A program made the translations under genes and the position numbers. This document shows, one piece after another, positions 6,501 through 48,696 of a DNA stretch of 64,000 nt. Every line of letters starts with the position of its first letter. Position 1 is the first letter of the stretch. The notes under the pieces are model-generated. The model was not told where the DNA came from, did no database searches, and worked only from the letters and a program-made list of their open reading frames with translations. The stretch comes from Candidatus Sabulitectum sp. (GTDB lineage: Bacteria > Fermentibacterota > Fermentibacteria > Fermentibacterales > JCC-6): assembly GCA_023145375.1 (NCBI GenBank), contig JAGLDY010000015.1, forward strand, positions 10,007 through 74,006, written 5' to 3'.

Positions 6501-6679
6501 GATAACGCTGTCACCCTCAAGGTGTCCGAATACATCGTTAACCAGCTTGAAGTGATCAATGTCTATTATTGTGAGAGACCATGTCTCATCGATTATGTCT
6601 GAGACCGGTTGTCCAGTTCATCCATAATGTCCCGGGTGTGGAGGCCGGTGAGATGGTCCAGTTTTGTCTTGTTTGTCAT
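3501..6679 (-). pseudogene. GGDEF-STAND NTPase-TPR paralog 1. Its N-terminal GGDEF domain is split by a -1 frameshift near 6599. The intact ORF 3501..6425 encodes the C-terminal part of GGDEF plus the NTPase and TPR.
   Basis: ATG at 6679 gives MTNKTKLDHLTGLHTRDIMDELDNRSQT, then a stop. The next frame continues IIDETWSLTIIDIDHFKLVNDVFGHLEGDSVIRRVANILSRNKRGTDTLIRYGGDEFVIVMPETE, which is collinear with paralog 2. The long ORF carries ISGEPGVGKTRL, NLHWISEHD, GNPLYLKELL and TPR-like repeats. Confidence 0.6.
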
Positions 6680-6705
6680 ATACCTTCCCTCAAAAGATAA
6701 CCCGA

Positions 6706-6734
6706 AAGATATTCCCTCGTGGGGTGGTACGCAA
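6706..6734 (-). promoter_or_regulatory. Promoter-like element of the form TTGCGT-N17-TATCTT upstream of paralog 1. It is conserved in all three paralogs.
   Basis: In gene orientation the sequence is CCATTGCGTACC..GGGAATATCTTT. The same TTGCRY-17 nt-TATCTT spacing occurs upstream of paralogs 2 and 3. Confidence 0.45.
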
Positions 6735-6888
6735 TGGAGGTATTACCGGGTTCACTGAATATTCTGATTCAGCAGCTTAATACGCGCAAATCCCCAGTTG
6801 AACTTTGGATATACACAGAAAAGCAATGCGGAACGTCTGAAAGCCTCTTTGATGTTTTCTTTGGAGCTGCTTGTTTGCTATGCTTCTT

Positions 6889-14508: not shown

Positions 14509-17500
14509 TCATTCTCTCTCCAGCTGCTTTTTCAGCTTTGCCAGCTTTTTAGCTGTTGTTGATTCCAGTATCTTCTGCCTGTAGTGATCGCTTCCTATGG
14601 CTGAAACAAAAACACTGAACATGTTCTGTGCTCTTGTGAGGGCTTCGCCGGCTTCAGTCATCTTGTTCTGTTCCTGGAGACATTCAACCAGTGTACCCAG
14701 CAGGTCTATCTCTCGGATAGAGGGCTCCTCCTCTGTATCTGATGTGGCGTTACGAAGATTTTGTTCCGCCTCTTTCAGGGCACTGGTTCTTTCCAGTGAG
14801 GGGTTGTTCAGCCGTTCGGTGCCTCTGTACCCCAGAAGAACTTTTCTAGTTGCACCGTCCATTGTTTTCATTGTCTCTTCGGTTTCCAGTTGCGTAAGAT
14901 GAATGTCTGCTTCTTTGAAGTCCTTTTTGTTTATCAGCATTGTCACCAGGTTCATCCTTGCGTTCAAGGCCATGGGGGCAAGACCCAGTTCATCTGCAGA
15001 TTCAATGGCTTTTTTGTATCCCATTTCCGCACTGGAATAGTTCTCATCTCTTGTATCAAGGTTCGCCAGGTAGCTGTTTGCCCAGATACCAAATCTTTTC
15101 GTGCCTGTTGCCTCCACCAGGTCAAGACAGCGCTGGAAGTAGTCTCTGGCCAGATCAAAATCCATTGCACTGTAGTGAGCTTGTCCAAGGTTAATGTAGG
15201 CACCCATGATGGCATGGGTATCACCTGTCTCTGTGAGTACTTTCAGTGCATCATTTAGGATGTTGATCCTGACCTCGTACTTGCTGGTGGCGAAGAGAGA
15301 TGCTGCAGTGTTCAGCAGAGCTCTTGCCTCGCCTGTCTTGTCCCCCAGCTGGCGGTAGATAGTGACTGCCTTCAAACACTCCTCGGTACTGTCAACCCGG
15401 GAAAAGATATTCAGAGCAATTGTACCGTGCCTCATGTAGTAAGTAGCCAGCAGATGCTTTCTCTCCCGGACATTTTTGATAGATTGTATTTCTTCCTTAA
15501 TTCCGTTCAGTCCCTGAAAGCCTTTTTCTTCTGATACGGTAAGGTACTGTATGAAAGCTATCTGCAATTTCGCTAGAATTCTTTCCTTTCCAGGAGGGAG
15601 CAGGGCTATCGTTGTTTTGTAAAGGCTGTCTGCAGTACCGTAGTCACCCATGTTGAAATGCAGATGTGCTTCCTGAAATCGAAGCAGAGCCGTCTGATCG
15701 ACGGTGGTTGCAAAAGCTACTGCATCCTTCAGTATCCCAGTTGCCTTGCTGTGTTCGGCAAAGAGGGTGTGAAGTTTTCCCAGCTCCAGCCTGGCATAGA
15801 AAGCTTCCTGCCTGTTTTCTTCCACACCTACTGAAAAGGCCATATACTGTTCCAGCCAGCGAAGCGCATCACGCTTGGCATCCCTGTTGTCTGCCTGTTT
15901 TTCGGCCAGAAGAGCGAAGCGCATTGCTTTTACAGGATCCAGACTGTCGCAGTAGTGGTGGGCTGCCAGTGGAACAATGGCAGTGTTGCCATGGTTGTAT
16001 ATCTCTTCATAGTAGAGCCCAAACCTGGATTGAAGTGCCTTCCGGGTACCCTGAGAGAGGTCATGGAGGAGAAAAGTGCGCATGGCATCATGGATGAAAT
16101 GGTACTCGAGTATTTTGAACTGGGAGAGATGCTCAAAGATTAGTTTCAGTTTGAGGGGGCCTTCAAGAGCTTTTGCAATTTCCAGTTCATCCCGGTGAAG
16201 GATTGCAGAAAGAGGAGCAAGTGAGAACGAGCCACCGGGCATAAGTGATCCGGCGGAGAGAACATCTCTTGTGAAAGGGTCAAGTCTATCAAGCCGTCCG
16301 GACATCAGCTGAGAGATCGTTGCCGGAAGTGGAAGATCGCTGGTTATCTTGTAGATCCAACCCCCCTCTGCAGCAGGTTCAATGGCACCGCTGTTTAGTA
16401 AAGACAGAAGTAGTTCTTTAAGGTAAAGAGGGTTGCCGCCACTCTGTTTCACAAGCATCTGAAGGACATCCCCGGGGATCTTCGGGTCACGAAGTGCAAA
16501 CATTACCATGTGTTTTGTGTACTCTTCATCCAGTCTTCCAAGGTTGATAGAGGTGAACCGAACAAGACTTGAAAGAATCCGTATCTTCTTCCTGATCCCA
16601 GAAGGGTCCTCCTGGGATTCATTTATGGTTGCAATGAATATTATGGGAACATTCTCTGTTGCTCTTATCAGGTAAGAAAGAAGATCAAAGTTATTGTCGG
16701 ATATCCAGTGAATACTATCCACAACGAATAGAATCGGCTGTCTGGATGCGATCCATCGCAGAATGGAAGATATCTCCAGGTAGATCCTGAGTCTTACCAC
16801 ACCTTCTTCGTCGGTTGATGGCGCTTTGGCCAGCTTCAGCTTAAGGTCGGGAAACAACTCAGCAGTCTGAGGCAGGATTTTCGGGAGGACTTTAGCCAGG
16901 CTCTCCAGATCATCTTTCGAGAAGGTCAGAAGCTTTTCTGCAATGGGGCTGGTTATCTGCTGATAGGGCTTGTCTGCGCCCAGTTCATCACAACTGCTCT
17001 GAAGGAAAAGACAATCCTTGAATCTGGAATAGTGTTTCAGCTCACTGATCAGTCGTCTTTTGCCTATCCCCGGTTCACCTGAGATGAGGGCGAAGCGTCC
17101 CTTCCCGGTTATTGTTTCATTCAAAGCATTTCGGAGGGTAGAAAGATCTGCCTGCCTGCCCACAAAATGCTCAAAGGATATCTCAGCACTTTCTTTTTTT
17201 GTATTCTTGTCTTTGTGGAAGGAAACTTTACCCCTGCCTCCGCTTTTTGCTTCGTAGAGAGCTCCGTCTGCCCTTTTTAGTATGTCTGCAAGATAAAGAT
17301 CCTCAGGCTTGCTCTCTGCAACACCAATTGAAAGACCCACATCCATTCCCTGGGAAAAAACTTCCCTTGCCAGCCCCTGAAGAATTCTCTCCGCCTGGTT
17401 TACAGCCTTCAACTGCTCCGTATGAGGCATAACTATGACAAACTCATCTCCTCCGTACCGAAGAAGAGTATCTGCTCCCCGACAGTTTCGGGAAAGGATA

Positions 17501-17697
17501 TTGGCTATGCGCCGGATCACCATATCTCCTTGAAGATGACCGTAAACATCGTTCACAAGTTTGAAGTGGTCGATGTCGATTATCATCATAGACCATATAT
17601 CCCTGCCCTCTTCCGCTGAGAATTCACGGTCAAGGTCATCCAGGATCCCGCGGGTGTGCAGGCCGGTAAGATCATCCAGTTTGTTCATTGAAGTCAT
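14509..17697 (-). CDS. GGDEF, STAND/AAA_16 NTPase and TPR, paralog 3 (about 1062 aa). The start is taken at MTSMNKLDDLTG.
   Basis: The motifs are RGADTLLRYGGDEF, ADGALYEAK, FEHFVGR, ISGEPGIGKRRL, FVVDSIHWISDNN and GNPLYLKELL. An RBS (GGAG) precedes the ATG at 17697. The ORF track start at 17919 adds a non-homologous extension. Confidence 0.8.
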   Translation of the reverse strand: MTSMNKLDDLTGLHTRGILDDLDREFSAEEGRDIWSMMIIDIDHFKLVNDVYGHLQGDMVIRRIANILSRNCRGADTLLRYGGDEFVIVMPHTEQLKAVNQAERILQGLAREVFSQGMDVGLSIGVAESKPEDLYLADILKRADGALYEAKSGGRGKVSFHKDKNTKKESAEISFEHFVGRQADLSTLRNALNETITGKGRFALISGEPGIGKRRLISELKHYSRFKDCLFLQSSCDELGADKPYQQITSPIAEKLLTFSKDDLESLAKVLPKILPQTAELFPDLKLKLAKAPSTDEEGVVRLRIYLEISSILRWIASRQPILFVVDSIHWISDNNFDLLSYLIRATENVPIIFIATINESQEDPSGIRKKIRILSSLVRFTSINLGRLDEEYTKHMVMFALRDPKIPGDVLQMLVKQSGGNPLYLKELLLSLLNSGAIEPAAEGGWIYKITSDLPLPATISQLMSGRLDRLDPFTRDVLSAGSLMPGGSFSLAPLSAILHRDELEIAKALEGPLKLKLIFEHLSQFKILEYHFIHDAMRTFLLHDLSQGTRKALQSRFGLYYEEIYNHGNTAIVPLAAHHYCDSLDPVKAMRFALLAEKQADNRDAKRDALRWLEQYMAFSVGVEENRQEAFYARLELGKLHTLFAEHSKATGILKDAVAFATTVDQTALLRFQEAHLHFNMGDYGTADSLYKTTIALLPPGKERILAKLQIAFIQYLTVSEEKGFQGLNGIKEEIQSIKNVRERKHLLATYYMRHGTIALNIFSRVDSTEECLKAVTIYRQLGDKTGEARALLNTAASLFATSKYEVRINILNDALKVLTETGDTHAIMGAYINLGQAHYSAMDFDLARDYFQRCLDLVEATGTKRFGIWANSYLANLDTRDENYSSAEMGYKKAIESADELGLAPMALNARMNLVTMLINKKDFKEADIHLTQLETEETMKTMDGATRKVLLGYRGTERLNNPSLERTSALKEAEQNLRNATSDTEEEPSIREIDLLGTLVECLQEQNKMTEAGEALTRAQNMFSVFVSAIGSDHYRQKILESTTAKKLAKLKKQLERE

Positions 17698-17772
17698 TCT
17701 CACTCCTACAGAATGGTGAGCAACTGTGAGCGCATGTGTTTCAAGACTATCTCCTCCTAAAAGATGTATCAG

Positions 17773-17801
17773 AAGATATGCCTGTTGGTTCGGATATGCA
17801 A
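17773..17801 (-). promoter_or_regulatory. Promoter-like TTGCAT-N17-TATCTT element upstream of paralog 3, with a 5' UTR of about 75 nt
   Basis: On the plus strand, aagata lies at 17773-17778 and atgcaa at 17796-17801. The spacing and hexamers match the sites upstream of paralogs 1 and 2. Confidence 0.4.
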
Positions 17802-18197
17802 TACATCGGTTGCCATATCCAGGAGTTGCAAAGGAACCTCCTTCGTGCTTAACATCTGTATATTTATGAACGGCATAAAGAAACACTTCAGGGCACGGCA
17901 AATTGATCATGATTTCCACAAGAAAGCCAACTGTCGCTGTTCCGGAAAGCCATACCGGAATCTGTTTGACATGGTTTCATATCTGCGTTCCTTCCCTTGC
18001 CTTGAGCGGTGCCGGGGACAATACTATTTCCAACGAAAAGGAATCAGGTTTTTTGCAGGAGGATAGAATGGGTTCATTTCCGACTGATATTGAGATATCA
18101 GCAGGTGTCATTATGAGAATGCCAGGGTTGCCGGTATCTCCCGCTGCGGGGAAGATGGATGTGGATGAACAGGGGAATGTGACGGGACTCTTCTAGG

Positions 18198-28503: not shown

Positions 28504-28623
28504 CTTTTCCTCCTGACTGCTTCCCGATTATAAGCCAAAGGAAGTGTAAATATCCTGAGAGCTATATTCACTTGACAGAGCGGAACAACCCTCTCTATTG
28601 TCATCGTTGAATTTGCTGAACTT

Positions 28624-31600
28624 TTGTGTTTTTTCAGAAAGGCTATTTTGAATCAAGCACCGCTGTTTATCAGGGAAATGATCCGCAGGGGAGAGGTCTC
28701 AGGCAACTTCAACGGTGCAGTGCTGCTTGCGGACATTATTGGTTTTACCTCAAGATTTGACAGGATGACAGAGCTTGGCGCAGAAGGGGCAGAGCTTGTT
28801 TCCAGGGAAGTAAGCAAAACCCTTTCTGCCGTTGTTGAAATTTGTGCCCGTTTTGGGGGCTTTCCTGTTTCATTTGCAGGTGATGCGGTTGCTCTTGTTT
28901 TCCCGGACGGTCTTGAAGAAGCGCAGTTGGCCTGCCAGCAGATATTAACGCTGGACCCTGGTAGTTTTCTTCCTTTAAGAAGCTCTGTGGGTGTGGGTAC
29001 TGTTGTCTGGGATGCAATTCCCATGGATGGATGGACCTTCTACAGTTTTCAGGGTTCTGCAGTTAGAAATGCAGCTATTGCCAGTTCGAACTGTTCCGTG
29101 GAACCTCCGGTACCGGCAGCTGTTGATGACGAATCGATCTCTGTATCAACAGAAGCTTCTCTCGTCGACTGTTTCAATCCACCTGCTCTATTCGGTGACA
29201 GTGCAGTAAATGAATTCAGGCGCGTGATCAACATTTTCATTTCTCTTGAGAATCGTGCAGGGAGGGACTGCCCGAGAAGTTTTCAGGAGTTTGTTCTAAA
29301 AGTTGCAGGTGAACTCGGCGGTTATGTATCCGGCCTGGAGGCTGTCAGTGAAGACTACCATATTCTGGTAGTATTCGGCGCTCCCATCTCCAGGGAGGAT
29401 GATTCCCGTCGTGCTGATACTTTTCTTCGGAGAGTATTTGCAGAAGCCAACGGCAGGATAAAAGCCGGAACTGCCAGTGGCCTGGTATTCAGTGGTTTGC
29501 TGAGTACACCCCTTCTGGAATCATACACAGTTCTCGGCCCTTCGGTGAATCTGGCAGCCCGTCTGCATAGTTCAGCAGGTTGGAATTCTGTATACAGCGA
29601 TTCTGTGTTTAATAACCTGTCCCGCCTTGGTATCAGGAGTGAGAAGGAGATCTCTCTGAAGGGGATATCGTCGCCTGTAAAGACAATAGTACTGTCTCCG
29701 TGGAAAAAGAGGACAGCCCCGGCGGATCCCGTCCCTCCGCTGATAGAAAGGGATGAACTTCTTCATCAAATTGAATCTGAACTGGAAAGGGATGATGCTC
29801 AGGTATTGCTTACCGGAGTTACCGGCATTGGAAAAACCAGACTGGCAACAGAGTTAAGTCGAAGGATGGGTGATGCCTATGCTATTCCCATCCGGTGTGA
29901 AAGCTCGTCCGGGGGCAGTTCGGATATTTTCTCCAGATTGTTCGGAGAGTGGATTGGTAGTGATACAGGCAAGGGAGGACTTACAGCTTTTCGGGGAAGG
30001 CTGTATGGTTTCATAGATATGCTGGATGAGCTTGATGACTCTGCGGCAGTTGAGGTCTCAGGGGAATTACTCAGGGCGGAATCGGTACTGGCGGCAATGG
30101 CTGGTTTCCACTGGGAGAGATCCCTTTACCAGGGGTTGGATCCCCGTGGCAGATTCCAGAATACAGTCTCTGTTACTGCTGCACTCATCAGAGGTCACAA
30201 CCTTCTGAAGAGGACTGTTCTGTTCTTTGATGATCTTCAGTGGATGGACCCTGATTCTGTGATACTTCTTGCGGCTGTTCTTAAAGAGCTTGGTGAGAAC
30301 AGGCCTCCCGTTGTTCTTCTTGCAAGACCTGGATTGGAAGATACTGTCCGGGATCTTGGCTTGACTCCTCTTGAAATTGACCTGCCTCCGCTTTCCAGAG
30401 AAGGCTGCAACAGTTTTCTGGAGTGGAGCCTGAAAAGAGAGCCTTCAGTGAGACTGCTTGACTGGTTTCATCTGCGTACCGAGGGAATTCCATTTTTCAT
30501 GGAGCAGTATGCCATGCTGCTTACTTCTGCAGAGGATATTCCGGATGAAGATGAATTCCCAGGCAACCTCCATGCACTTCTTGTCGCCAGACTGGACAGG
30601 CTTGAGTCGAACCTCAAGGAGACAGTTCTTGCAGCCAGCGTACTTGGCCGGACCTTCGACCCGGGTATTCTCCAGCAGATCATACCGGGTGATGATCTGG
30701 AAGAAACCCTTCTTGAAGGTGTTGTGGAGAGGGTCTGGGAGCGTGCCGGTGACGGGATGTTCAGTTTTATCCATGTACTGCTCCGAGAGGCTGCTTACAA
30801 TCTTCAACTGCATTCGGAGCGAAGAAGGCTTCATACAAAAGCTGCGGAAGAGATGAAAAGGCAGTGGGCGCATTTACCTGAAAAAGCTCATCGCATAGCT
30901 TTTCATCTTGAGCAGTCTGATCAGTGGGAGGATGGAGCAGAGTGGTTCTTCAAGGCAGGCAAACACTCTTTTTCCAGAAGTATGCTCACCACAAGCCATG
31001 AACAGATGCAGAAGGTTCTTCTCCTTTCCCCTGCTGTTTCAACAAGACTGGATGCACACAGAATGATCTTTGACCTGTACTCATTCAGTGGAGCCTGGAA
31101 GGAAGCGGAAGAAGCCATCAGAGTGGCAGCTTTAGAGGACCTTTCCCACGGGGAACGCGCCAGGATACAAATGATGCGGGTGAATCTTGCCACGAATCTT
31201 GGCAAACCGAAGGAAGCTTCGGAACTGCTGGATGGCATTGAAAAGGCAAACCCCGAGCTGAGACCACAGATACTCAACCATCGCGGGCGTATTCTCATGC
31301 TTCAGGCCAGAACGGAAGAGGCAATGTACCTGCTTCTTGATGTACACAAAGAGCTGAAAAATGGAACCTATGAAGAAAAACTCATTGGTATAAAAGCCCT
31401 GGGGAATGCCTCTGGATGTATGCTGCGTCTGGGCATGAGGTCTGAAGCGGAAGAACCACTCAAGCAGGTTCTTGCATACGCTGTAGAAACTGTGAACCTT
31501 GTGATGGAAACGCTGGCTGTGGGGAATCTTGCTCTGGTCTACAAATACCAGTCGGGCAGGCATAATGAAGCAGTAAGTATGACTCGAAGGCACCTGGAGC

Positions 31601-32250
31601 TGGCGCGGAAGACAGGAAGTCGTCTGCTGGAACTGCAGGCAGTTGGAAACCTGGGCACAATGCTGGAAAGAGAGGCTTCCACCCCAGAGGTTTTTGAGCT
31701 TCTTGAGGAAGCGGTGGAGCTCTCCAGGAAGTATGGAGGGAATGAGTCTCTTTCAATCTCTCTTGCCAATCTGGGCAGAGGGTATCAGAAAGTCGGCAGG
31801 CTTGAACAATCTCTGGAATTTTTCCAGGCCGCTCTTGGTATCTGTTCAAAAGAAGGAATGAGTATTCATCAACTGGATTATGCTTTTGAAACAGCACATG
31901 TTCTAATGGATCTTGGTTTGCTGGACCAGGCTCAGGAACAGATCCGGCAGATAGATCAGTTGCAAATTCCTGAAGATTACCTTTACAGCAGTCTGTGGTG
32001 CAAAAGCAGACTTTTGCGACTTCAAGGCAGAAAGAAGGAAGCCGCCGCTGTTCTGAGAGCAGGGCTGAAGAAGTTTGAAGAGGGCTTGGAAAACTTTGAG
32101 ATTCTGCAGGAACTCTACCTGTCCACAGGTGACAGGAATGTTCTGGAACAGTGCGTGAAACACGGGGAAAAGTATTACATAGAAGAGCCCCAGTGGAGTT
32201 TGCGAAAGCGGCTTGATGAGTTGAAGAAAGACATAGAGAGTATTAGGTGA
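28624..32250 (+). CDS. Class III adenylyl/guanylyl cyclase domain, STAND/AAA_16 NTPase and TPR (1208 aa)
   Basis: The N-terminal cyclase core is AVLLADIIGFT...FAGDAVALVF. Walker A is LLTGVTGIGKTRL and Walker B-like is FFDDLQWMD. A long C-terminal TPR-like repeat region follows. Confidence 0.8.
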   Translation: MCFFRKAILNQAPLFIREMIRRGEVSGNFNGAVLLADIIGFTSRFDRMTELGAEGAELVSREVSKTLSAVVEICARFGGFPVSFAGDAVALVFPDGLEEAQLACQQILTLDPGSFLPLRSSVGVGTVVWDAIPMDGWTFYSFQGSAVRNAAIASSNCSVEPPVPAAVDDESISVSTEASLVDCFNPPALFGDSAVNEFRRVINIFISLENRAGRDCPRSFQEFVLKVAGELGGYVSGLEAVSEDYHILVVFGAPISREDDSRRADTFLRRVFAEANGRIKAGTASGLVFSGLLSTPLLESYTVLGPSVNLAARLHSSAGWNSVYSDSVFNNLSRLGIRSEKEISLKGISSPVKTIVLSPWKKRTAPADPVPPLIERDELLHQIESELERDDAQVLLTGVTGIGKTRLATELSRRMGDAYAIPIRCESSSGGSSDIFSRLFGEWIGSDTGKGGLTAFRGRLYGFIDMLDELDDSAAVEVSGELLRAESVLAAMAGFHWERSLYQGLDPRGRFQNTVSVTAALIRGHNLLKRTVLFFDDLQWMDPDSVILLAAVLKELGENRPPVVLLARPGLEDTVRDLGLTPLEIDLPPLSREGCNSFLEWSLKREPSVRLLDWFHLRTEGIPFFMEQYAMLLTSAEDIPDEDEFPGNLHALLVARLDRLESNLKETVLAASVLGRTFDPGILQQIIPGDDLEETLLEGVVERVWERAGDGMFSFIHVLLREAAYNLQLHSERRRLHTKAAEEMKRQWAHLPEKAHRIAFHLEQSDQWEDGAEWFFKAGKHSFSRSMLTTSHEQMQKVLLLSPAVSTRLDAHRMIFDLYSFSGAWKEAEEAIRVAALEDLSHGERARIQMMRVNLATNLGKPKEASELLDGIEKANPELRPQILNHRGRILMLQARTEEAMYLLLDVHKELKNGTYEEKLIGIKALGNASGCMLRLGMRSEAEEPLKQVLAYAVETVNLVMETLAVGNLALVYKYQSGRHNEAVSMTRRHLELARKTGSRLLELQAVGNLGTMLEREASTPEVFELLEEAVELSRKYGGNESLSISLANLGRGYQKVGRLEQSLEFFQAALGICSKEGMSIHQLDYAFETAHVLMDLGLLDQAQEQIRQIDQLQIPEDYLYSSLWCKSRLLRLQGRKKEAAAVLRAGLKKFEEGLENFEILQELYLSTGDRNVLEQCVKHGEKYYIEEPQWSLRKRLDELKKDIESIR

Positions 32251-32402
32251 GAACTCTTCAGAAAAAATAGATTAAGCTTTTGTCACTGTGGCGGACAATT
32301 CATCACGAAAGTCAAAAGCAGACCTTAACTCTAGATCTGGAGAAAACACAACGGTATGAACAGGGTGCGTTCCCAACCGCTACTTTGTTCTTTCACTCTT
32401 TT

Positions 32403-33572
32403 CTACTCTTCCGGGTAGCTTTCCTTAATTTCTCTGAGAGCTTCAAGTTGAGATATGAAGTGATCTCTCAAGTTCGGGTCAAATTTGTTCTTGAACAATT
32501 TTTCCATTTCATCGTTTACCCTGCTGTCAGTCCATGGCTCCTTGTATGCTCTCTTTGAACTGAGTGCATCAAACACATCGGCGATGGATGTAATTCTGGC
32601 CATGAAGGGAATCTCTTCCCCTTTGAGCCCATTGGGGTATCCGGAGCCGTCCCAGTTCTCATGGTGGCTTAAGGCAATATCTCTGGCCATCTCATCAAAG
32701 GTAGATTCACAATTCTGCAGAACTTCAGCACCTATGGAACAGTGGTTCTCCATGGTGCTTCGTTCTTCAGCGGTAAGCTTGTCCGGTTTTTTCAGGATGC
32801 TGTCGCTTATCCCGGTTTTGCCAAGATCATGGAGCATTGCAGCCATTCTTAGAATATCACGGTTATGGGTTCTGTCGCTATCTTGGATCTTGTGGGCTTT
32901 TGCCCAGGAGTCATAGATCGCAACGGAGTAACTTCCGACTCTGTTTACATGGGGTCCCGTCTCTTTCGGATCCCTGAATTCCGTCATTCTCACCATTCGC
33001 ATAAGCAGAGTTCTTGTCATCATTGCCCGCTCAAGAGCAAGAGCCCCCAGGGTGGCGTAGTATTTACCAAAAAGTTCCATTGGGGATTGGAAGGGGATGA
33101 ACTCTCTCTGGTCAGCTTTTGCATTGATAAGCTGCAGTATGCCCACCACCGCATGCCGGTTGTTTATCAGGGGCAGAGTCAAAGTGGATATGGTGCGGTA
33201 GTATGAGATCCTGTCGTAACTGTCATCAAAAGAGTATGGAGCTTCCCCCGAAATCTTCCGGACATCATCGATGTTGAGTATTTCGCCGGTGCATGCCACA
33301 TACCCTGCCATGCTGCTTTTTGTTTTTGGAATAGTGAAACGGGTGTAGGGAATCCTCTTCCCACGGGAGGTCATTGTGTCGTTCTGTGAATGACGGAAGG
33401 AGAGAACATCTCCTTCGACTGTGTAGATAGATCCCGCATCAGCGTTGGTAAAGAACCTGGCCTCTGTAAGGATATGTTCCAGCAGGATATCAATGTCACC
33501 GATGTTTACAAGAATAGCCCCTGCAGCCAGAACTCTCTCAAAAGATTCACTGTATGGGGAAACGGTGGGCAT
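32403..33572 (-). CDS. GAF-domain HD-GYP phosphodiesterase, likely specific for c-di-GMP
   Basis: The N-terminal domain is GAF-like. The HD-GYP catalytic motifs are LHDLGK and HHENWDGSGYP. Confidence 0.8.
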   Translation of the reverse strand: MPTVSPYSESFERVLAAGAILVNIGDIDILLEHILTEARFFTNADAGSIYTVEGDVLSFRHSQNDTMTSRGKRIPYTRFTIPKTKSSMAGYVACTGEILNIDDVRKISGEAPYSFDDSYDRISYYRTISTLTLPLINNRHAVVGILQLINAKADQREFIPFQSPMELFGKYYATLGALALERAMMTRTLLMRMVRMTEFRDPKETGPHVNRVGSYSVAIYDSWAKAHKIQDSDRTHNRDILRMAAMLHDLGKTGISDSILKKPDKLTAEERSTMENHCSIGAEVLQNCESTFDEMARDIALSHHENWDGSGYPNGLKGEEIPFMARITSIADVFDALSSKRAYKEPWTDSRVNDEMEKLFKNKFDPNLRDHFISQLEALREIKESYPEE

Positions 33573-36369: not shown

Positions 36370-36705
36370 ATGAAAGCCGTTAAGATCATCCTTGCAGTTG
36401 CCGGAGTAACTCTTGTGTTCTCCGGTCTTGTCTTTGTCATTGGAAGAAGACCGGTAACAGGCGCTGTTATGCTTGGGATCGGTGTCTTTATGATCATTTA
36501 CGGCCTGAGAAAACCAAAAACAAGAGATGTTGTGGTAAGGCGGGAGCTTGAGCTCTCCGGTGATGTGGATATTGAGAGTATGAAGTGCAACCAGTGCGGA
36601 GGCACCCTCTCCTCTGAGAATGTGTCAGTAAAAGCTGGAGCGGTGTTCGTCTCATGCCCGTACTGCGGCAGTGAATATCAGATAGAGGAGGCGCCCAAAT
36701 GGTGA
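36370..36705 (+). CDS. Small membrane protein with a C-terminal zinc-ribbon (CxxC...CxxC)
   Basis: It has two TM helices, followed by CNQCGG and CPYCGS. It overlaps the DUF2207 gene start by 7 nt. Confidence 0.55.
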   Translation: MKAVKIILAVAGVTLVFSGLVFVIGRRPVTGAVMLGIGVFMIIYGLRKPKTRDVVVRRELELSGDVDIESMKCNQCGGTLSSENVSVKAGAVFVSCPYCGSEYQIEEAPKW

Positions 36706-38270
36706 AGAGCCTGCTTATTCTTCTTTTGCTTCTCATCCCTCTTTCTGCAAGTGGTCAGAATTATGATTTCTCTATTCCGGAGTTCAAATGTGTGGTGGAG
36801 GTGAACAGGGACAGAAGCCTTGATATAAGCTACGATATCTTCTTTGAGTGCACCCCGGGCTACAGCAGTATAGACATTGTTGATATTGGATTTCCTTCAA
36901 GCGACTTCAGTCTGTCCGATGTGGAGGCTGGTGTGGACAGCCATACTCTTTCCCGTATTTACTATTCAACCTATATAGACAATGGTGTAGAGGTTCATCT
37001 GGACGGAAATGCCATCCATTCGGGAGAGCAGGGACATTTCCGGTTCACCGGCGTGAACAGAGATATGGTCTTTCTGGATACAGAGGAAGATGACTATGCT
37101 TCCATGGAGTTCTCCCCAACATGGTTTGATGGTGGGATACTCAGCGGTTCAAGTGATTTTACCCTGATCGTGGTCTTTCCTCCCGGGGCAGACCCCGACC
37201 TTGTCAGGCACCATGCCAGACCCTTCACCAGCTCCACAGTTGATAAGGACGGTCGGGTGGTATACACCTGGGAAGAGACCAGGCGTGTTGATTCAAAGTA
37301 CATCGTAGGTATCTCGTTTCCGGTGGCTCTGGTTGATGGACCTCTTCTGGAAAGACCCGGGGAACCCTTTTTAAGCGAAGGTGCTCTTGTCGCACTGGCT
37401 GGTTTTGCTTTCTTTTTCCTTTTCTTTGGCTTCATGATATTAATAATTGTCAAAGCAGTAATTAAAGCAAAGCGTAGAAGAGAAGAGTACCTTCCTCCGA
37501 AACTCGGCCTTGAGGGTTCTGGAATAAGGCGAGGGCTGACAGCGCCTCTCGCGGCGTTGCTTCTTGAGGAGAAGCTGGACAGGATATTCGTTCTTATAGT
37601 CTTCGGGCTTTTAAAGAAAGGCAGTCTTCAGTTTGATGAAGATCAACTTGAAAAGACCGGCCTGACAGATGGCCTTCGGTCTTACGAAAAAGAGTTGCTT
37701 GCACTTTTTCCCGATGGTCCTTCCGGCAAGCCTGTTCCTGAAGAAGAGATAAGAAAGATATTCCTCGGCATGATCGAGGTTCTTGAGAAGAAAATGGAAG
37801 GATTCTCTCTTAAAGAAACTCAGGCATACTACAGGAGTGTCATAGAAAGCGCCTGGAAGATGGTATCTGCTGATCGTTCCGCTGAAAAAGCCGGTGAGAT
37901 CCTTGGTGAAAGATTCCAGTGGCTTCTGGCAGACGGGAAATATGATTCCAGAGCAAGGAAGCTTCCCTCAGATACTGACATTCTTCTTCCCATGTACATG
38001 TACGGCTTTTTTCCCGGGACTTCGCGAATGATTCATGGGAGTTCCAGCACTGGTGGAATGAACCTTTCACAGGCCTGCACGCAGGTTGCAGGGGCTCTGG
38101 AAAGAACAGCAGGTAACGCTGTGAGCAATATCACAAGGTTGTCTTCTTCGGTGACTGCAAAGACAAACCCGGTTCCTGTATCTACTTCCAGGGGTTCAAG
38201 CGGTGGTGGATGCGCCTGTGCGTGCGCCTGCGCAGGATGTGCCTGCGCCTGTGCAGGGGGAGGAAGGTAA
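36699..38270 (+). CDS. DUF2207-like membrane protein with a C-terminal (Cys-Ala)n tail
   Basis: The signal peptide is MVKSLLILLLLLIPLSASG, and there is an internal TM helix (ALAGFAFFFLFFGFMILIIV). The C-terminus is SSGGGCACACACAGCACACAGGGR. The codons at 38211-38255 vary synonymously (TGC/TGT, GCC/GCG/GCA), which argues for protein-level selection. An RBS (GAGGAGG) precedes the start. Confidence 0.7.
   Translation: MVKSLLILLLLLIPLSASGQNYDFSIPEFKCVVEVNRDRSLDISYDIFFECTPGYSSIDIVDIGFPSSDFSLSDVEAGVDSHTLSRIYYSTYIDNGVEVHLDGNAIHSGEQGHFRFTGVNRDMVFLDTEEDDYASMEFSPTWFDGGILSGSSDFTLIVVFPPGADPDLVRHHARPFTSSTVDKDGRVVYTWEETRRVDSKYIVGISFPVALVDGPLLERPGEPFLSEGALVALAGFAFFFLFFGFMILIIVKAVIKAKRRREEYLPPKLGLEGSGIRRGLTAPLAALLLEEKLDRIFVLIVFGLLKKGSLQFDEDQLEKTGLTDGLRSYEKELLALFPDGPSGKPVPEEEIRKIFLGMIEVLEKKMEGFSLKETQAYYRSVIESAWKMVSADRSAEKAGEILGERFQWLLADGKYDSRARKLPSDTDILLPMYMYGFFPGTSRMIHGSSSTGGMNLSQACTQVAGALERTAGNAVSNITRLSSSVTAKTNPVPVSTSRGSSGGGCACACACAGCACACAGGGR
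38211..38255 (+). repeat. (Cys-Ala)n-encoding microrepeat at the DUF2207 C-terminus
   Basis: The codon run is TGC GCC TGT GCG TGC GCC TGC GCA GGA TGT GCC TGC GCC TGT GCA. The shifted frame of this run creates the spurious N-terminal extension of the next ORF in the track. Confidence 0.8.
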
Positions 38271-38272
38271 TC

Positions 38273-39592
38273 ATGATAAAACATCTGAAAGAATCCGGAA
38301 AGAGAATTTCAGAGCAGGGTATGCATCATTTCCGAAATGGTGAACACAGAGTCCATCTGCGAATCAGTGAGAACGGCCGGGGAATACTAACAGTGGACGC
38401 GTCACGGATAATTCACCTTAATCCTGTGGCTGTTGATATGGCCTGGATGATACTCTCTGAGATTCCAGATAAGTACATTCTTAAGTCTCTCAGAAGAAGA
38501 TATTCTGTAAAAAAGAAGCAGGCAGCGAATGATCTGGAAGAGTTTGGTAAAGTTCTCAACGACATTCTGGAAACTGGGGCTTCAGAACCGATCACTTTTG
38601 TCAACATGGAAGTGACAGAACCTTTCCAGGCTGAAGTCGAGGTACCGTACAGGATGGACCTTGCTCTTACTTACAGGTGCAACATCAACTGCGGTCACTG
38701 TTACAACCAGACCCGTGAGAAGAATGAACTTTCAACTGAACAGTGGAAGACCATAATGAAGAAGATCTGGGATCTGGGTATCCCTCATGTGATATTCACA
38801 GGCGGTGAGTCTACCCTTCGTGACGACCTCGAGGAACTGATCCAGTACGCGGAAGCCCTGGGCCTTGTAACAGGTCTGCTTACAAACGGAGTAAAGCTGT
38901 CAAACGAGGTTTATCTGCAGAGCCTTGTTGACGCAGGTCTTGATCACATTCAGATAACCTTGGAATCAAGTGAAAGAGATACACACAACAAAATGACAGG
39001 CGCTGACAGCTTTGACAGCACTGTACAGGGGATCAGAAACTGCGTGAAAGCAGGTATCCACACCATTACAAACACCACCATAACCGAGGAGAACAGTGAG
39101 GGTATGGCCGATACAATGCAATTCGCTCACGACCTGGGTCTTTCCTCGGTGGCGGCTAATACCATAATACACAGCGGCAAAGCCCTTGAAGGTGATTTTG
39201 CGGTGAGCACAGATAAACTGGAAAACATAATTCTCTCAATGAATGAGAAGATCGAAGAACTGGGAATGAGGTTCATCTGGTACTCGCCCACAAGATACTG
39301 CAGTTTCAATCCCCTGGAGTTCGATCTCGGAGCAAAGAGGTGCACAGCAGGTGAATACAACCTCTGTATCGAGCCGGATGGTGAGGTACTCCCATGCCAG
39401 AGCTGGTACGAATCTGCCGGCAACATCCTGACATCAGAGTGGGATTCTATCTGGAACAGTGACTTGATGAAGAATGCCCGTAACAGAGAATGGGTGGACG
39501 ATGTTTGCAGGGAGTGTGTTGACTTGAGCCTTTGCGGAGGAGGATGCCCCCTTGAAAAGAAGAACGGAGCCCCCTGCAGGGACTCAATGTAA
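38273..39592 (+). CDS. Radical SAM enzyme with a C-terminal SPASM domain, and an N-terminal domain I read as a PqqD-like RiPP recognition element. A putative peptide/protein-modifying maturase.
   Basis: The ATG lies 2 nt after the DUF2207 stop, with a GGAGGAAGG RBS. The N-terminal 90 aa (VDASRIIHLNPVAVDMAWMILSE...) resemble a PqqD-like RRE. The radical SAM motif is CNINCGHC (CX3CX2C), and the C-terminal Cys cluster (CSFNP...CTAGEYNLCIEPDGEVLPC...CRECVDLSLCGGGCP) is typical of SPASM. Confidence 0.8.
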   Translation: MIKHLKESGKRISEQGMHHFRNGEHRVHLRISENGRGILTVDASRIIHLNPVAVDMAWMILSEIPDKYILKSLRRRYSVKKKQAANDLEEFGKVLNDILETGASEPITFVNMEVTEPFQAEVEVPYRMDLALTYRCNINCGHCYNQTREKNELSTEQWKTIMKKIWDLGIPHVIFTGGESTLRDDLEELIQYAEALGLVTGLLTNGVKLSNEVYLQSLVDAGLDHIQITLESSERDTHNKMTGADSFDSTVQGIRNCVKAGIHTITNTTITEENSEGMADTMQFAHDLGLSSVAANTIIHSGKALEGDFAVSTDKLENIILSMNEKIEELGMRFIWYSPTRYCSFNPLEFDLGAKRCTAGEYNLCIEPDGEVLPCQSWYESAGNILTSEWDSIWNSDLMKNARNREWVDDVCRECVDLSLCGGGCPLEKKNGAPCRDSM

Positions 39593-40232
39593 AAGGGATC
39601 AGCTGTGGGATATCTACAGAAGACAGTTCCATGAGCTGGCGCCTCTCCGCAGGCACATCTGTTCACAGCTTCCTCTCAGGAAGATCCACAGTCTCTTTGA
39701 ACCGGGCTGTGGAACCGGGCTTCTGGGGAATGAGCTTCAGAGCCTTACTGATGCCGCCTACACAGGGATGGACATCGATCCGAGTATTCTACCTGAAGGT
39801 GAAAGTAACAGATTCCTGGCCGGTGATGCCGTTAAGAACCCTCTTCACGCCGATCTTTATGTCTCTTCCTTTTTCTTCTCCAGTGTGGATAAACCTGTAA
39901 AGTGGTTGAAAAAGGTGCGGAAGAACCTTTCATCGGACGGATTGTTCGCGGTCTTTGCTGAATACGACTACACCCGGATAAGTGAATCTCCGGATACCGG
40001 CCTGGGTGATCTGATCAGAGCAGGTCTTGAGAGGGACAGCATTAATACGACCAATGGAAGTCAGCTTGATCTATTCTTTCAAGAAGCAGGCTTCAGGAAA
40101 CAGGCAGGCGGTGAAGTTCAGAGTTCTCTTCAAAAGCCGGACAGAGCTTTCCTGGAGATGCACACGGAGAACCTCCCGGATGATATTCCCCTTATGTCAT
40201 GGAGAATCGTCTGGGGTATCTGGAGGAGCTGA
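39552..40232 (+). CDS. Class I SAM-dependent methyltransferase
   Basis: Motif I is LFEPGCGTGLLG. It overlaps the 3' end of the rSAM gene, so the two are probably co-transcribed. Confidence 0.6.
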   Translation: MKRRTEPPAGTQCKRDQLWDIYRRQFHELAPLRRHICSQLPLRKIHSLFEPGCGTGLLGNELQSLTDAAYTGMDIDPSILPEGESNRFLAGDAVKNPLHADLYVSSFFFSSVDKPVKWLKKVRKNLSSDGLFAVFAEYDYTRISESPDTGLGDLIRAGLERDSINTTNGSQLDLFFQEAGFRKQAGGEVQSSLQKPDRAFLEMHTENLPDDIPLMSWRIVWGIWRS

Positions 40233-41637: not shown

Positions 41638-42108
41638 TCACTTTCCTGCGCTGTGCTCCTGCTGACTCTCCATGGATACAACATCTGCAAGATCCCTGTG
41701 TCTTCCAGAGGCCATTTTGTTCACGATCAGATCGTTCCTGGATATGACGGAGATACTGATGTCATCTATCTCTATGATGTTTCTACGTTCATAGCATGTG
41801 CTGAAACTGATTCCATCAGCATCATTTATTATGTCGATCTGTACAGGTGATCTTCCCATCCGGAATACATTACCTTTTTCCTGAAAAACCTCATTCGCAA
41901 CAGTTGGTGCCCCGAAAGCAAGAAGTGCCTGCTGCAGTTTCTCGATATTATTATCATCCGTTGCTATGAGAAAATCAATATCTCCAGTTGCTCGCGGATT
42001 CCCGTAAAGACCAACAGCCCAGCCACCTAACAGCAGGTAATGAACATCATGATCGTTTAAGAACTGTATAAACTCTTTGAAGTCTTCCGGTAGTTGCCTC
42101 AGGCCCAT
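41638..42108 (-). CDS. Minimal nucleotidyltransferase-fold protein (MNT/AbiEii-like)
   Basis: It has LLGGWAVGLYGNPRATGDIDFLI, a GG...R.T.DIDF nucleotidyltransferase motif. Confidence 0.5.
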   Translation of the reverse strand: MGLRQLPEDFKEFIQFLNDHDVHYLLLGGWAVGLYGNPRATGDIDFLIATDDNNIEKLQQALLAFGAPTVANEVFQEKGNVFRMGRSPVQIDIINDADGISFSTCYERRNIIEIDDISISVISRNDLIVNKMASGRHRDLADVVSMESQQEHSAGK

Positions 42109-45182: not shown

Positions 45183-48100
45183 TTATCTCAGTATGACCAG
45201 CTTTCTTGATGTTTCTGTTTCAGCGGAGAACCGGAGGAAGTAAACTCCCGGTGAAAGGTTAGAGACATCCAGACTTACATCTGCATTTACCGGGGAAGCT
45301 CCTGTGTTCTCACTTACAAGCCTTCCGGAAATGTCGTAGATACCAAGGGTCCACTCTCTCTGGATCTCTGAGAACAGGTGAACATTTACTGATGAGTGTG
45401 AAGGATTTGGGTAGGGAGAACCCATGGGAGAATCCGGCTTCAGGAATCCTCCAGGGTTGCCTGTGTATCCTGTGTAGGCTCCCTCTATTGTGATATCGTC
45501 AATGAAGAAGCCTGTTCCAGTGTCGCCGTCGTTGTCTGTTTTGAATCGGAACTCAAGTTGAACTCCTGTTCCTGCTTCATACATGGAGAGATCGTATGAA
45601 TAGGGTACCCAGCCGGTTTCATTTCCCTTGCCTGCCGGTTTACCAAGTGCTCCACCTGACCCGATGAAATCCAGGGTATCTGAGGAAAGGTCAGTCAGGT
45701 CCTGTATGATGAGATAAATGCCGTCACTGCCGTAAATAGCCACATCAAAAGTGGTCCAGAACTCAATGGAAGCATCTGGCGCCAGCGTCAGTTCAGGGGA
45801 GAGTAACCCACAGTCCATGTTGTCCACGTAACCGCCTGAGCCACCGCAGTACCATGAGTGGGAGGGTGAATGGCTGACGGTATCCGTGATGTTCCACAGG
45901 TCATTCGTGCCCGAGTGTGTCCATCCGGAAGCCCCGGATTCAACATCGTTTGAGATCCCTGTTTCACCCACAGTGAGCCTCAGCGTGTCCTCCGTGGTGT
46001 AGTTGGCGGTTTCAGCAGCAATATCGAAGTGGAACCACGGGAAAGATGGAGAGGGTGCACTTGAAGAGAGTTCACAGGTGAATGAAAGTGTTCGTGTGCT
46101 GTCCTCCGGGATTGAACTTACCCATGCGGAATCCTCCGGCCAGGAAACCCATGCAGGAAACTCAACCATCTGCACCGCTACGCCTGTTGCTGCGAGGAGC
46201 CCGAGATTGGCAATGTTCACATCAAGCTGGAAAGTCTCTCCCGGTTCCGGAACTCCGTTACCGTTTCCGCTGGCATCGTCATCAACAGAGTAAGTAGTAA
46301 AGTAAAGCCCAGGTGCGTACACTAGAAGAGGTATCGATACATCCCAGCTGCCCTCACCTGCTGTGATCTGCCCGCTCAGTGTTACTACTGAACCAGTTGA
46401 AGCGGAGCCGTTCACTGCAAGTGCCAGCAGTGGTGACCCGGTGGATTCACTTCCCGCAGGGATGCTACCAAAAGAACTGGAGCTCTGGGTCAGAGTTCCA
46501 GGGCCGGTTATGGAAGTAATGTTGATCTCAACCGTCGACAGGTCTTCGTTTCCCTGATTCAGAAGGGTGATAACAAGATCAGCGGAAGCCCCGGGAGAAA
46601 GATGTCCCAGGCTCTGATCATCATCTATGACAAGCAGTGAGATAACTGGATCAGGCCCGGAAGACTGGTCAACGACAACGGTTGTTCTTTTGATACCGGG
46701 TCCTGTAACGGTGAGTGTTACACTTCCCGTCACCGGTTCTGTTAAGAGAAAGTTGAATTGACCTGTCGGGTCAAGTTCTGTAACGATCCAGTTGTTCCCG
46801 TCGTCTTGAACACATGCTATCAGACCCTCGGGGTCCACTCCGGTGATCTGCACAGGGAAGATCTCAGTATTTGCCGTGACCAGGTCCGGGCACTGAACTT
46901 CTATTGCCGCAGGAGTTGTTCTGTATGGTCTGAAGGAAGGGTCGCCAAGAAGGTTCACATCGTACTGATGCCACCTGTACACATTTTCCCACTGGCTGTA
47001 AGGTATGAAATACTCTTTTGTATGTGCCAGCAGTTCTCCCAGCGTGAGGGACCAGTCGCTGTAAAGGTAATCGAAGAAAAGGTGGTCCAGAGCGTCTGAA
47101 TAACCGTAAAGGGGATTACCCGGGGAGCCCCACCCGTAGCTGGAGTTTCCTATGTACCCAATGCTTCCCCCTGATGCGTTGGTAAGGAAATGTTCGGCAA
47201 TGGCGTCGTAATCGAACGAGGCACCCCAGCAGCCTATAGAGTACATTACCGAGGCAAATCTTCCATCCGAATCGATTGCATTTACGTCACTGATGTACAT
47301 GTAATCATCACCAACACCCAGGCACGAATACCATGCATGCCCATCGTGGTTTATGAGATTCTGCCCTGCGTTCAAAGCGGCCATCGTGGTGTACAGGTTC
47401 TCGTTCCCCAGAGCCTTATAGAGTTTTGTGATGTTCAGGTAACCAGGAAGAAAGTGTTCTTCTATGTAGTCCTTGCTATCTCCGGAATTGGTGTAAGGAC
47501 TTGTCCACAGAACCTCTGCCAGAAACAGGACATTCTGATAGAAGTCATCTTTTAAGCATTCTTCGTAAGCACCGATGTTGTTAACGAATATCTGAGCTTC
47601 TGTTGTATTCTCAACAGTTGCTCTTCCCACGAAGATGTCAGGATGCAGATCCACATCATCGGCGATCTCACCGAAGAGGTCATTCATGTTCGCGTCCCAG
47701 GTTCCGTCCAGGTCGGAGAAGTAGAGATCACAGGGCAGACTGTCCTCCCGTGGGTCGTATCCCGCCTCGCAGGTCATGGCGTAAGCGTATCTGAAAGGCA
47801 CAAGGTTCGTATCTCCTCCCAGAAGAAGATAGTCCAGACCGTTCTCGGTGTAGTAATCCTTCACATAGTTGCGAAGCTTCTCAGCATTGTCTCTTCCGGA
47901 AGCCGCTGCGTATATCACATCCATGGTAACTATTTCTGTAAGAATACCCTGTGCAGTTCTTCGATCTGCAAGCAACTGAAAGATTGTTTCAAGGGAAGAG
48001 TCAGTTACTATGAGCATCCTCTTAAAATCGTAGTCTTTCCCTCCACTGCAGAAAGGTCTTTCCATAAGAGGGGCTGTCTCAATTCTGACCTCAAGTGAGG

Positions 48101-48584: not shown

Positions 48585-48696
48585 TATGAACCTCCTGTTT
48601 AATGAATTCAGTGTCATTCTCTTAAGTATTGACCGTTGCCTCTTTAGTGTCAATGAACCTGGAACCACAAAAGTCGTAGCATAAATGTGTAACTAA

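Follow-up and report, generated by a model that had tools for sequence, protein, structure and literature searches.

A divergent sAC-like cyclase-STAND-TPR protein of Candidatus Sabulitectum and its relation to neighboring GGDEF and HD-GYP genes

We analyzed a 64,000-nucleotide stretch of Candidatus Sabulitectum sp. DNA (GenBank assembly GCA_023145375.1, contig JAGLDY010000015.1, positions 10,007 to 74,006), which is referred to as the window. The host organism belongs to Candidatus Fermentibacterota (FCB group). The gene studied here, at 28648..32250 on the forward strand, encodes a class III cyclase head followed by a STAND-type P-loop NTPase and tetratricopeptide repeats (TPRs). Sequence comparison and structure modeling showed the head as a tandem C1-C2 cyclase, a predicted single-chain pseudo-heterodimer of the soluble adenylyl cyclase (sAC, ADCY10) type with one shared active site. 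The protein is a divergent member of the known and widespread bacterial sAC-like cyclase-STAND-TPR proteins, and its vertically inherited family falls within a much larger bacterial class that has a tandem cyclase on a STAND-TPR body. It is probable, in our judgment, that the gene encodes a cytosolic signaling protein built like full-length animal sAC and working as proposed below.

The tandem cyclase head and the STAND-TPR body

The region 28624..32250 (+) is an uninterrupted open reading frame (ORF) of 1208 codons in both the ORF listing and the translation, and residue numbers refer to this ORF throughout. The motifs quoted in a previous sequence-only reading of this stretch, AVLLADIIGFT, FAGDAVALVF, LLTGVTGIGKTRL, and FFDDLQWMD, are all present in it.

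We compared the first 354 residues with PDB sequences using phmmer. The best match was human sAC, in two colinear stretches. The segment DIIGFT...FAGDA paired with sAC C1, and the segment GLVFSG...YTVLGPSVNLAARL paired with sAC C2. A profile of 40 orthologs widened the match to residues 36-177 (C1) and 288-446 (C2) of human sAC, again colinearly. The sequence-only reading had described one cyclase core of the class III homology type. The class III fold was borne out, but the head has two cyclase-homology domains rather than one; the motifs quoted for it fall in C1 alone, and C2 holds YTVLGPSVNLAARL.

An AlphaFold (AF2) model of the head was built from an input alignment of 16 family members and nine distant tandem relatives. 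It reached a predicted local distance difference test score (pLDDT) of 82.8 and a predicted template modeling score (pTM) of 0.83, and showed beta-alpha-beta domains at residues 18-147 and 189-354 with a disordered linker between them. The strands and helices of C1 at residues 18-147 had pLDDT values mostly above 85. C1 ends past its fourth helix, without beta6-alpha5-beta7-beta8, which make up the ~45 C-terminal residues of a normal domain. When the model was searched against the PDB with Foldseek, the top 24 matches were all human sAC and covered both domains (E ~1e-21; TM-score on the query, TMq, 0.69-0.75). The C1-C2 chains of transmembrane adenylyl cyclases (tmACs) ranked after sAC. The fold matches comprised sAC, tmAC, CyaC, Cya2, and RhGC, with E-values of 1e-21 to 1e-10. 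Because the sAC matches span both domains, whereas single-domain cyclases span only half of the model, the head is predicted to be a single-chain pseudo-heterodimer and not one domain.

The Pfam model Guanylate_cyc (PF00211) stayed below its gathering score (18.0 vs. 21.9 bits) with the whole protein and with the isolated head halves. The sub-threshold match covered only the C-terminal half of C2 (profile positions 101-180, E 0.002). Since Pfam could not settle the question, the cyclase assignment rests on the PDB sequence and profile matches and on the fold. The Gly at the position of the base-contacting Lys, the loss of the bicarbonate site, and the truncated C1, all described below, account for the failure of Pfam to see the cyclase domain. 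Column identity among the 40 orthologs was 0.75 in C2 and 0.70 in C1, compared with 0.63-0.69 in the STAND and TPR parts and 0.37 in the linker. Conservation is highest in C2 and lowest in the linker.

The features of the cyclase gene are as follows.

28648..32250 (+): sAC-like cyclase-STAND-TPR gene (ORF listing, ortholog N-termini)
28648..29091 (+): C1, truncated cyclase-homology domain (matches to sAC C1 36-177; AF2 model)
29092..29196 (+): C1-C2 linker, variable and predicted to be disordered (pLDDT below 50 at residues 149-183; column identity 0.37)
29197..29715 (+): C2, complete second cyclase-homology domain (matches to sAC C2 288-446; MAFFT alignment with bacterial tandem cyclases)
29740..30318 (+): STAND P-loop NTPase, AAA_16 (Pfam, residues 373-565, E 2.6e-14, 54.5 bits vs. 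a cut-off of 32.6)
29815..29838 (+): Walker A, GVTGIGKT (Lys404 in 40/40 orthologs)
30217..30234 (+): Walker B, VLFFDD (D536 and D537 in 40/40 orthologs)
30319..30870 (+), boundaries approximate: helical and winged-helix arm of the STAND module (AF2 pLDDT 85-95)
30871..32247 (+): C-terminal TPR superhelix (Pfam TPR_12, TPR_7, TPR_16, and others at residues 851-1155)

The P-loop NTPase and TPR region that had been claimed to follow the head were thus confirmed by an AAA_16 match above threshold, invariant Walker A and B motifs, and TPR matches. The NCBIfam search of the protein gave partial, sub-threshold matches only and no family name; among them, TIGR03903 (kinase/cyclase fusion) matched over the STAND part with 87 bits. 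The TPR region was modeled entirely as helical hairpins (pLDDT ~90-96), and its profile matches in the PDB were LGN/Pins and consensus TPRs. The superhelix is presumed to be a sensor or interaction domain. The full-length AF2 model had a pLDDT of 81, with 85-96 over the STAND and TPR parts. Its best Foldseek match in the PDB was 6mfv, a STAND protein with tetratricopeptide repeats (E 3e-12), followed by sAC and, further down, by the STAND sensor Avs3.

The maximal ORF opens at TTG 28624, and an alternative ATG lies at 28678. Public gene calls chose ATG 28678, giving 1190 aa, and an identical protein is public (P0001). The likely start is TTG 28648, which gives a protein of 1200 aa beginning MNQAPLFIRE, and the ortholog N-termini (MNxAPLFI) match this start. 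A sigma-70-like sequence, TTGACA-18-TATTGT, is located at 28572..28601, 5' of the gene. In the promoter and terminator scan, site counts were no higher than those in shuffled sequence, so such predicted sites are weak hints only. The chromosomal surroundings contain genes for pyruvate kinase, DNA polymerase III alpha, and a Lon-like protease.

Active-site residues and proposed function

Residue roles were taken from human sAC (PMC12867704, Table 1; PMC12250328), and conservation was counted over the 40 orthologs, which are only 47-85% identical. The metal-binding Asp pair is intact: D37 (in ADIIGFT) and D87 (in FAGDA) both lie in C1 and are found in 40/40 orthologs. They correspond to D47 and D99 of sAC and are also invariant in the wider alignment of tandem cyclases. 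C2 carries Thr302 (sAC T405), and its VNLAARL motif contains Asn309 (N412) and Arg313 (R416), each in 40/40. Lys346, in the LKG motif of C2, is kept in 38 of the 40 orthologs and is taken to be the phosphate-contacting Lys. The position of sAC K144, which contacts pyrophosphate, is Arg or Lys in 36/40 in the MAFFT register (LPLR of C1). The metal site of C2 is degenerate, as expected of a pseudo-heterodimer, with Ser207 at the position of the first Asp in all 40.

The base pocket differs from that of sAC. The position of the base-contacting Lys334 is Gly237 in 39/40 orthologs, on which the HMMER and MAFFT mappings agree, and E239, two residues further on the same strand, is present in 34/40. 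Of the two bicarbonate-site residues, K95 is replaced by Ser83 (39/40) and R176 by Ala151 or a variable residue. It had been suggested that the substrate could be assigned from Lys/Asp, as in adenylyl cyclases, or Glu/Cys, as in guanylyl cyclases. Neither was found, nor any other canonical pair (Lys/Thr, Glu/Gly). The pair is Gly237/Thr302, and therefore the product nucleotide cannot be read from the sequence. Other bacterial tandem cyclases are diverse at the Lys334-equivalent position (Q, R, E, G, K). The conservation pattern is the one expected of an active enzyme whose base pocket is unusual, not of a decayed domain.

Mapped onto sAC, C1 supplies the two metal-binding Asp residues, and C2 supplies the Thr, Asn, Arg, and Lys for the base, ribose, and phosphates. 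We propose that the head is catalytically competent and forms a 3',5'-cyclic nucleotide. Cyclic AMP (cAMP) is the most likely product, because the head keeps the class IIIb-type, adenine-contacting Thr, which is T405 in sAC (PMC12250328). Other bases may be accepted, however, because the base-contacting Lys is Gly; in sAC, this Lys reaches the base only via water (PMC12867704). The head is not expected to be regulated by bicarbonate in the way of mammalian sAC, since both residues of the bicarbonate site are replaced. Non-mammalian sACs that are insensitive to bicarbonate have lost K95 and R176 as well (PMC12867704). Judging from STAND proteins in general and from the autoinhibition of sAC, the C-terminal STAND module would control the output. 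A ligand or partner at the TPR superhelix may free the NTPase from a closed ADP state, and ATP binding or oligomerization may then relieve the inhibition of the pre-assembled C1-C2 head.

Several points weigh against this proposal. Pfam Guanylate_cyc falls short of its gathering score. The base Lys is Gly in nearly all orthologs and C1 is short by ~45 residues, and therefore the activity or substrate could differ from those of any characterized cyclase. The STAND control mechanism is drawn by analogy only, and no STAND ligand has been found even for mammalian full-length sAC (PMC12802110). In addition, the head is less confident in the full-length model (pLDDT 50-85) than in the head-only model, and the head-STAND contacts in the former are untrustworthy.

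Two other readings of the head were considered. The head may be a working cyclase whose product is not cAMP but cGMP or a pyrimidine cyclic nucleotide. The replacement of the purine-selecting Lys by Gly237, the nearby E239, and the variation at the Lys position among bacterial tandem relatives, which suggests varied specificities, all speak for such a product. The mycobacterial Rv0386, which has a non-canonical Gln/Asn pair, reportedly shows guanylyl cyclase side activity, and class III-like cyclases of Pycsar are said to make cCMP and cUMP. However, the adenine-contacting Thr is invariant, the sequence has neither the Glu of guanylyl cyclases at the Lys position nor Cys or Gly at the Thr position, and no Pycsar-like effector gene or defense-model match was found. 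Moreover, the Lys of sAC touches the base only via water, so its loss need not change specificity. We consider a product other than cAMP unlikely. It is very improbable that the head has lost catalysis and is retained in a STAND regulator as a pseudo-cyclase with a structural or binding role. A pseudo-cyclase could explain a head that Pfam does not recognize, with a truncated C1 and without the base Lys and bicarbonate-site residues, but degenerate domains normally lose their metal-binding and transition-state residues. Here these residues are all invariant among orthologs as little as 47% identical, and conservation within the protein is highest in the two cyclase domains. A sAC-like enzyme that most likely forms cAMP is the preferred reading of the head. 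The Gly in the base pocket and the shortened C1 are departures from the usual cyclase active site that can be tested.

Family, GGDEF paralogs, and neighboring genes

The orthologs form a clade of 47 clusters at identities of at least 47%, with at most 38% identity to the rest. We found 24 orthologous loci in species-representative genomes, one per genome, and those with names are all Fermentibacterota (Ca. Sabulitectum, Aegiribacteria, Fermentibacteria, and Hyd24-12). None of the 47 clusters has a precomputed PF00211 match. An exhaustive phmmer search with the head gave 5,832 cluster representatives at E ≤ 1e-3, including 1,995 at E ≤ 1e-10. The best 150 head relatives are mostly 1,200-1,500 aa in length, with the head at the N-terminus. 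Six relatives were sampled with Pfam: all six have AAA_16 and TPRs, four showed only the C-terminal half of C2, and two showed no cyclase domain. Because thousands of proteins share the head and all six of those sampled have AAA_16 and TPRs, the architecture is common, and it is known: several orthologs carry the JGI label 'class 3 adenylate cyclase / TPR repeat protein'. A literature search joining soluble adenylyl cyclase, STAND, and TPR in bacteria found nothing relevant, and one on ADCY10 with P-loop and tetratricopeptide found nothing.

What is peculiar to the Fermentibacterota clade is the shortened C1, the Gly, and the absent Pfam cyclase signal taken together. These results correct an annotation gap. 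The Pfam cyclase model misses or only half-sees the clade and a large share of the other bacterial sAC-like proteins, so that they are filed as "TPR" or "AAA". Otherwise, the finding is an ordinary one and shows no new mechanism, local domain swap, or dedicated operon.

Upstream of the cyclase gene, the window contains three related genes on the reverse strand.

6889..10074 (-): GGDEF-AAA_16-TPR paralog (Pfam GGDEF E 1e-35, AAA_16 E 5e-19)
14509..17919 (-): GGDEF-AAA_16-TPR paralog (Pfam)
3501..6560 (-), listed ORF 3501..6425: GGDEF-AAA_16-TPR paralog, frameshifted near the start of GGDEF (Pfam, translations)

The sequence-only reading had counted three GGDEF paralogs here. Two are intact, and the third has the same build but an interrupted GGDEF domain; in its listed ORF, 3501..6425, Pfam sees only the end of GGDEF. 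The domain continues upstream of the listed ORF, with the N-terminal MTNKTKLDHLTGLHTRDIMDELDNR in another frame after a 1-nt frameshift, and the gene is either a pseudogene or the product of an assembly error. The real start of 14509..17919 is probably at MTSMNKLDD near 17697. Its Walker A motif reads GEPGIGKRRL, with Arg at the Mg-binding Ser/Thr position. RYGGDEF is kept in the translations of all three paralogs, and an RxxD I-site motif was read by eye in each.

The cyclase head does occupy the N-terminal position held by GGDEF in these paralogs, and both precede an AAA_16 STAND module and TPRs. We examined whether the chassis is the same, as had been claimed. The three GGDEF proteins are close paralogs; 6889..10074 and 14509..17919 are 53% identical to each other over 1,046 residues. 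The cyclase STAND-TPR part matched the best GGDEF paralog (6889..10074) with 20% identity, 42 bits, and E 1e-7 in BLASTP, and the other two with 28-32 bits. With P0048, a canonical cyclase-STAND-TPR protein of another Aegiribacteria genome, it scored 196 bits (27% identity, E 1e-55). Homology between the two chassis is therefore detectable, and since both STAND modules match the same part of TIGR03903, they belong to one superfamily.

An all-versus-all comparison of 430-residue NTPase modules separated them. The cyclase NTPase was closest to those of other tandem-cyclase STANDs (116-165 bits), followed by single-cyclase STANDs (80-101 bits) and SARP-type STANDs (32-63 bits), and it reached only 32 bits with the local GGDEF paralogs. 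The GGDEF NTPases scored best with SARP/BTAD-type STANDs (90-108 bits), and the cyclase family was among their weakest matches. When the GGDEF NTPase alone was searched against the database, the picture was the same, and only two close GGDEF-AAA_16 clusters, both from Ca. Sabulitectum, were returned. On these alignments, the chassis belong to one superfamily but to separate lineages of it. The claim of a common chassis thus holds for the domain families and the superfamily, but not for the lineages, and the claim of local or recent head swapping found no support, as the NTPases group with other cyclase STANDs on one side and with SARP STANDs on the other. A sister relationship between the cyclase STAND and the GGDEF STANDs was tried and rejected by pairwise BLASTP, the STAND-only search, and the all-versus-all NTPase comparison. 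The carrying of varied heads is reportedly an old and documented property of STAND modules. The GGDEF-AAA_16-TPR architecture itself looks rare and may be more unusual than the cyclase protein.

The gene downstream of the cyclase gene lies on the opposite strand.

32403..33572 (-): GAF-HD-GYP phosphodiesterase (Pfam HD_5 E 3e-30, 105 bits vs. a cut-off of 27.2; HD E 1.5e-17; GAF E 7e-9)
~33087..33497 (-): GAF domain of the HD-GYP protein (Pfam)
~32469..32903 (-): HD-GYP domain (Pfam; HD and HHENWDGSGYP in the translation)
32339..32319: terminator-like hairpin 3' of the HD-GYP stop codon (a weak hint; scan not above shuffles)

The convergent GAF-HD-GYP phosphodiesterase of the sequence-only reading was confirmed by HHENWDGSGYP, the HD motif, the Pfam domains, and a match to PmGH (4mcw, E 7e-51), and the neighbor is a credible, well-formed HD-GYP phosphodiesterase on its sequence. 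PmGH is its best solved relative, followed by 5z7c, an HD-GYP protein specific for 3'3'-cyclic GMP-AMP (3'3'-cGAMP), and by 4r8z, a cyclic di-GMP (c-di-GMP) phosphodiesterase. The GAF domain is similar to chains of PDE5, PDE2, PDE10, and an adenylate cyclase (1ykd) that contain GAF domains, with E-values of 1e-11 to 1e-9. The cyclase and HD-GYP genes are convergent, with 152 bp between them, and therefore are not co-transcribed.

We surveyed synteny in seven locus neighborhoods and by tblastn on 33 loci, seeking HD-GYP within 8-10 kb of the cyclase gene. In eight genomes, including that of the window, the cyclase gene is followed downstream by an HD-GYP ortholog (77-82% identical). All eight belong to the subclade of at least 60% identity and share M20-peptidase, methyltransferase, and GT4 flanks. 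Within the same distance, HD-GYP was absent in four other loci of this subclade and in 13/13 loci of the 47-54% subclade. Shared ancestry of a chromosome segment would give this adjacency, which is no evidence of a dedicated pair. A conserved cyclase/HD-GYP pair was rejected as a candidate: the genes are convergent, the arrangement is confined to eight syntenic genomes, and it is absent in 17 loci with adequate flanks.

GGDEF genes of another kind were observed near some orthologs. In the loci L002, L012, and L013, a gene for a TPR protein with a transmembrane (TM) segment and GGDEF (TPR-TM-GGDEF) lies directly downstream of the cyclase gene. In L014, L020, and L023, a GGDEF-domain gene lies ~3.5-4 kb downstream. 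The L002 gene (13603..15393 (+), 596 aa) has a start that overlaps the cyclase stop codon, and a GH114 glycoside hydrolase gene (15429..16424 (-)) lies beside it, between TPR-TM-GGDEF and the HD-GYP gene. The TPR-TM-GGDEF and GH114 genes are absent from the window. The TPR-TM-GGDEF neighbors speak for some local c-di-GMP context. In L007, the divergent neighbor of the cyclase ortholog (3900..7595 (-)) encodes a TIR-AAA_16-TPR protein of 1,231 aa, and thus this phylum has yet another head on a STAND-TPR body.

The sequence-only reading had taken these arrangements as one STAND-TPR chassis with a locally swapped head, joined with the HD-GYP protein in a dedicated cyclic (di)nucleotide signaling hub. 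The common order of domain families and their detectable homology (E 1e-7) are in line with this, as are the HD-GYP ortholog 3' of the cyclase gene in the eight closest-subclade genomes, the TPR-TM-GGDEF gene that overlaps (L002) or closely trails the cyclase stop codon in some genomes, and the likeness of the HD-GYP GAF domain to those of cyclic-nucleotide phosphodiesterases. However, the two kinds of NTPase are among the most distant pairs of the comparison set, at 32 bits, and each groups elsewhere. The GGDEF genes are 11-25 kb away, with housekeeping genes (pyruvate kinase) and an AbiE pair intervening. The HD-GYP gene is convergent, without co-transcription, and within 8-10 kb it is missing from 13 deeper and four closer orthologous loci. 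The genomes that do have it also share the entire M20-peptidase/methyltransferase/GT4 block in synteny, as expected from common descent. We judge the hub to be quite unlikely, and we regard the HD-GYP gene and the GGDEF-STAND paralogs as separate c-di-GMP components, not dedicated partners of the cyclase. A narrower connection, for which we see only a slight chance, is that the clade is a pared-down bacterial version of full-length sAC, with a minimal C1, no bicarbonate site, and Gly for the base-contacting Lys, whose altered base selection yields another or an additional cyclic nucleoside monophosphate. In the Sabulitectum-like subclade, the GAF domain of the HD-GYP neighbor would sense this product, and the cyclase gene would be co-transcribed with a TPR-GGDEF gene. 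If true, a STAND-gated cyclic nucleotide signal would be wired directly to c-di-GMP turnover. Least probable of all is an anti-phage STAND sensor, Avs-like or Pycsar-like, with a cyclase effector. STAND-TPR proteins include the Avs sensors, with Avs3 among the fold matches, the TIR-AAA_16-TPR gene adjoins one ortholog (L007), and the window contains AbiE toxin-antitoxin genes. Against a defense role, PADLOC returned no defense-system model and matched only a generic TPR model (E 4e-6), on which this candidate was rejected. There is one orthologous locus per representative genome with conserved synteny within subclades, unlike patchy defense islands, and no effector gene was conserved beside the cyclase gene in the seven locus neighborhoods.

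Other genes in the window were also noted. The AbiEi/AbiEii toxin-antitoxin pair is at 11722..13328 (-), between the GGDEF paralogs, and a second AbiEii/DUF6036-like gene is at 41638..42108 (-). The region ~36699..40232 (+) encodes a 523-aa protein with no Pfam match, a radical SAM/SPASM enzyme, and a methyltransferase; this cluster is conserved in L002 and may be a peptide-modification locus. The gene at 45183..48668 (-) encodes a 1,161-aa gingipain-like C25 peptidase with a propeptide and a type IX secretion C-terminal sorting domain (Pfam).

Comparison with known systems

The HD-GYP neighbor is like PmGH of Persephonella marina (4mcw). The match spans residues 86-385 and takes in the complete HD-GYP catalytic domain together with a portion of the GAF-like region at the N-terminus, and the HD and HHExWDGxGYP motifs are conserved. 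The substrate may be c-di-GMP or 3'3'-cGAMP, as 5z7c was also matched.

The body of the cyclase protein resembles SARP/AfsR- and MalT-type STAND regulators in its AAA_16 NTPase, helical arm, TPR sensor, and presumed ligand-gated ADP/ATP switch. These regulators have a DNA-binding effector, whereas the protein studied here has an enzyme head. SARP-type STANDs are the nearest non-self relatives of the NTPase of the GGDEF paralogs, not of that of the cyclase protein.

Bacterial sAC-like or class III cyclase-AAA_16-TPR proteins, such as the Chloroflexus enzyme, the Rv0386 type, and TIGR03903, have the same domain order, and their NTPases are the nearest to that of the cyclase protein (116-165 bits). 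Proteins of the Rv0386 type have just one cyclase domain and end in a LuxR helix-turn-helix. Unlike these proteins, the clade described here is tight and separate, has a shortened C1, carries a 'VSGLEAG...Y' strand in place of the usual 'xINx...DKG', and lacks any precomputed Pfam cyclase match. The Chloroflexus sAC-like enzyme is activated by bicarbonate, according to a passage of PMC11006738 that cites Kobayashi et al. 2004.

The closest parallel to the proposed design is mammalian full-length sAC. It consists of C1-C2, an autoinhibitory segment, and a predicted STAND/P-loop region; a haem domain is also predicted in it, and its C-terminal region reduces activity about three-fold (PMC12802110). 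Both proteins have C1 followed by C2 as a pseudo-heterodimer, then a short connector, and then an extended C-terminal part that holds a STAND-type P-loop NTPase, the STAND regions being likened by their described layout. sAC is the best sequence and fold match of the head in the PDB. D47 and D99 from C1 and T405, N412, and R416 from C2 are all kept, and an N-terminal 'P..(F/L)I' helix ahead of C1 is similar as judged by eye. The two nevertheless share only 18-20% identity. Here, Ser stands in place of K95, Ala or a variable residue in place of R176, and Gly in place of K334, C1 is short of its last ~45 residues, and the protein has 1,200 aa compared with 187 kDa for mammalian full-length sAC. 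Small soluble bacterial C1-C2-STAND-TPR proteins of this kind could be tractable models for the STAND control of full-length sAC.

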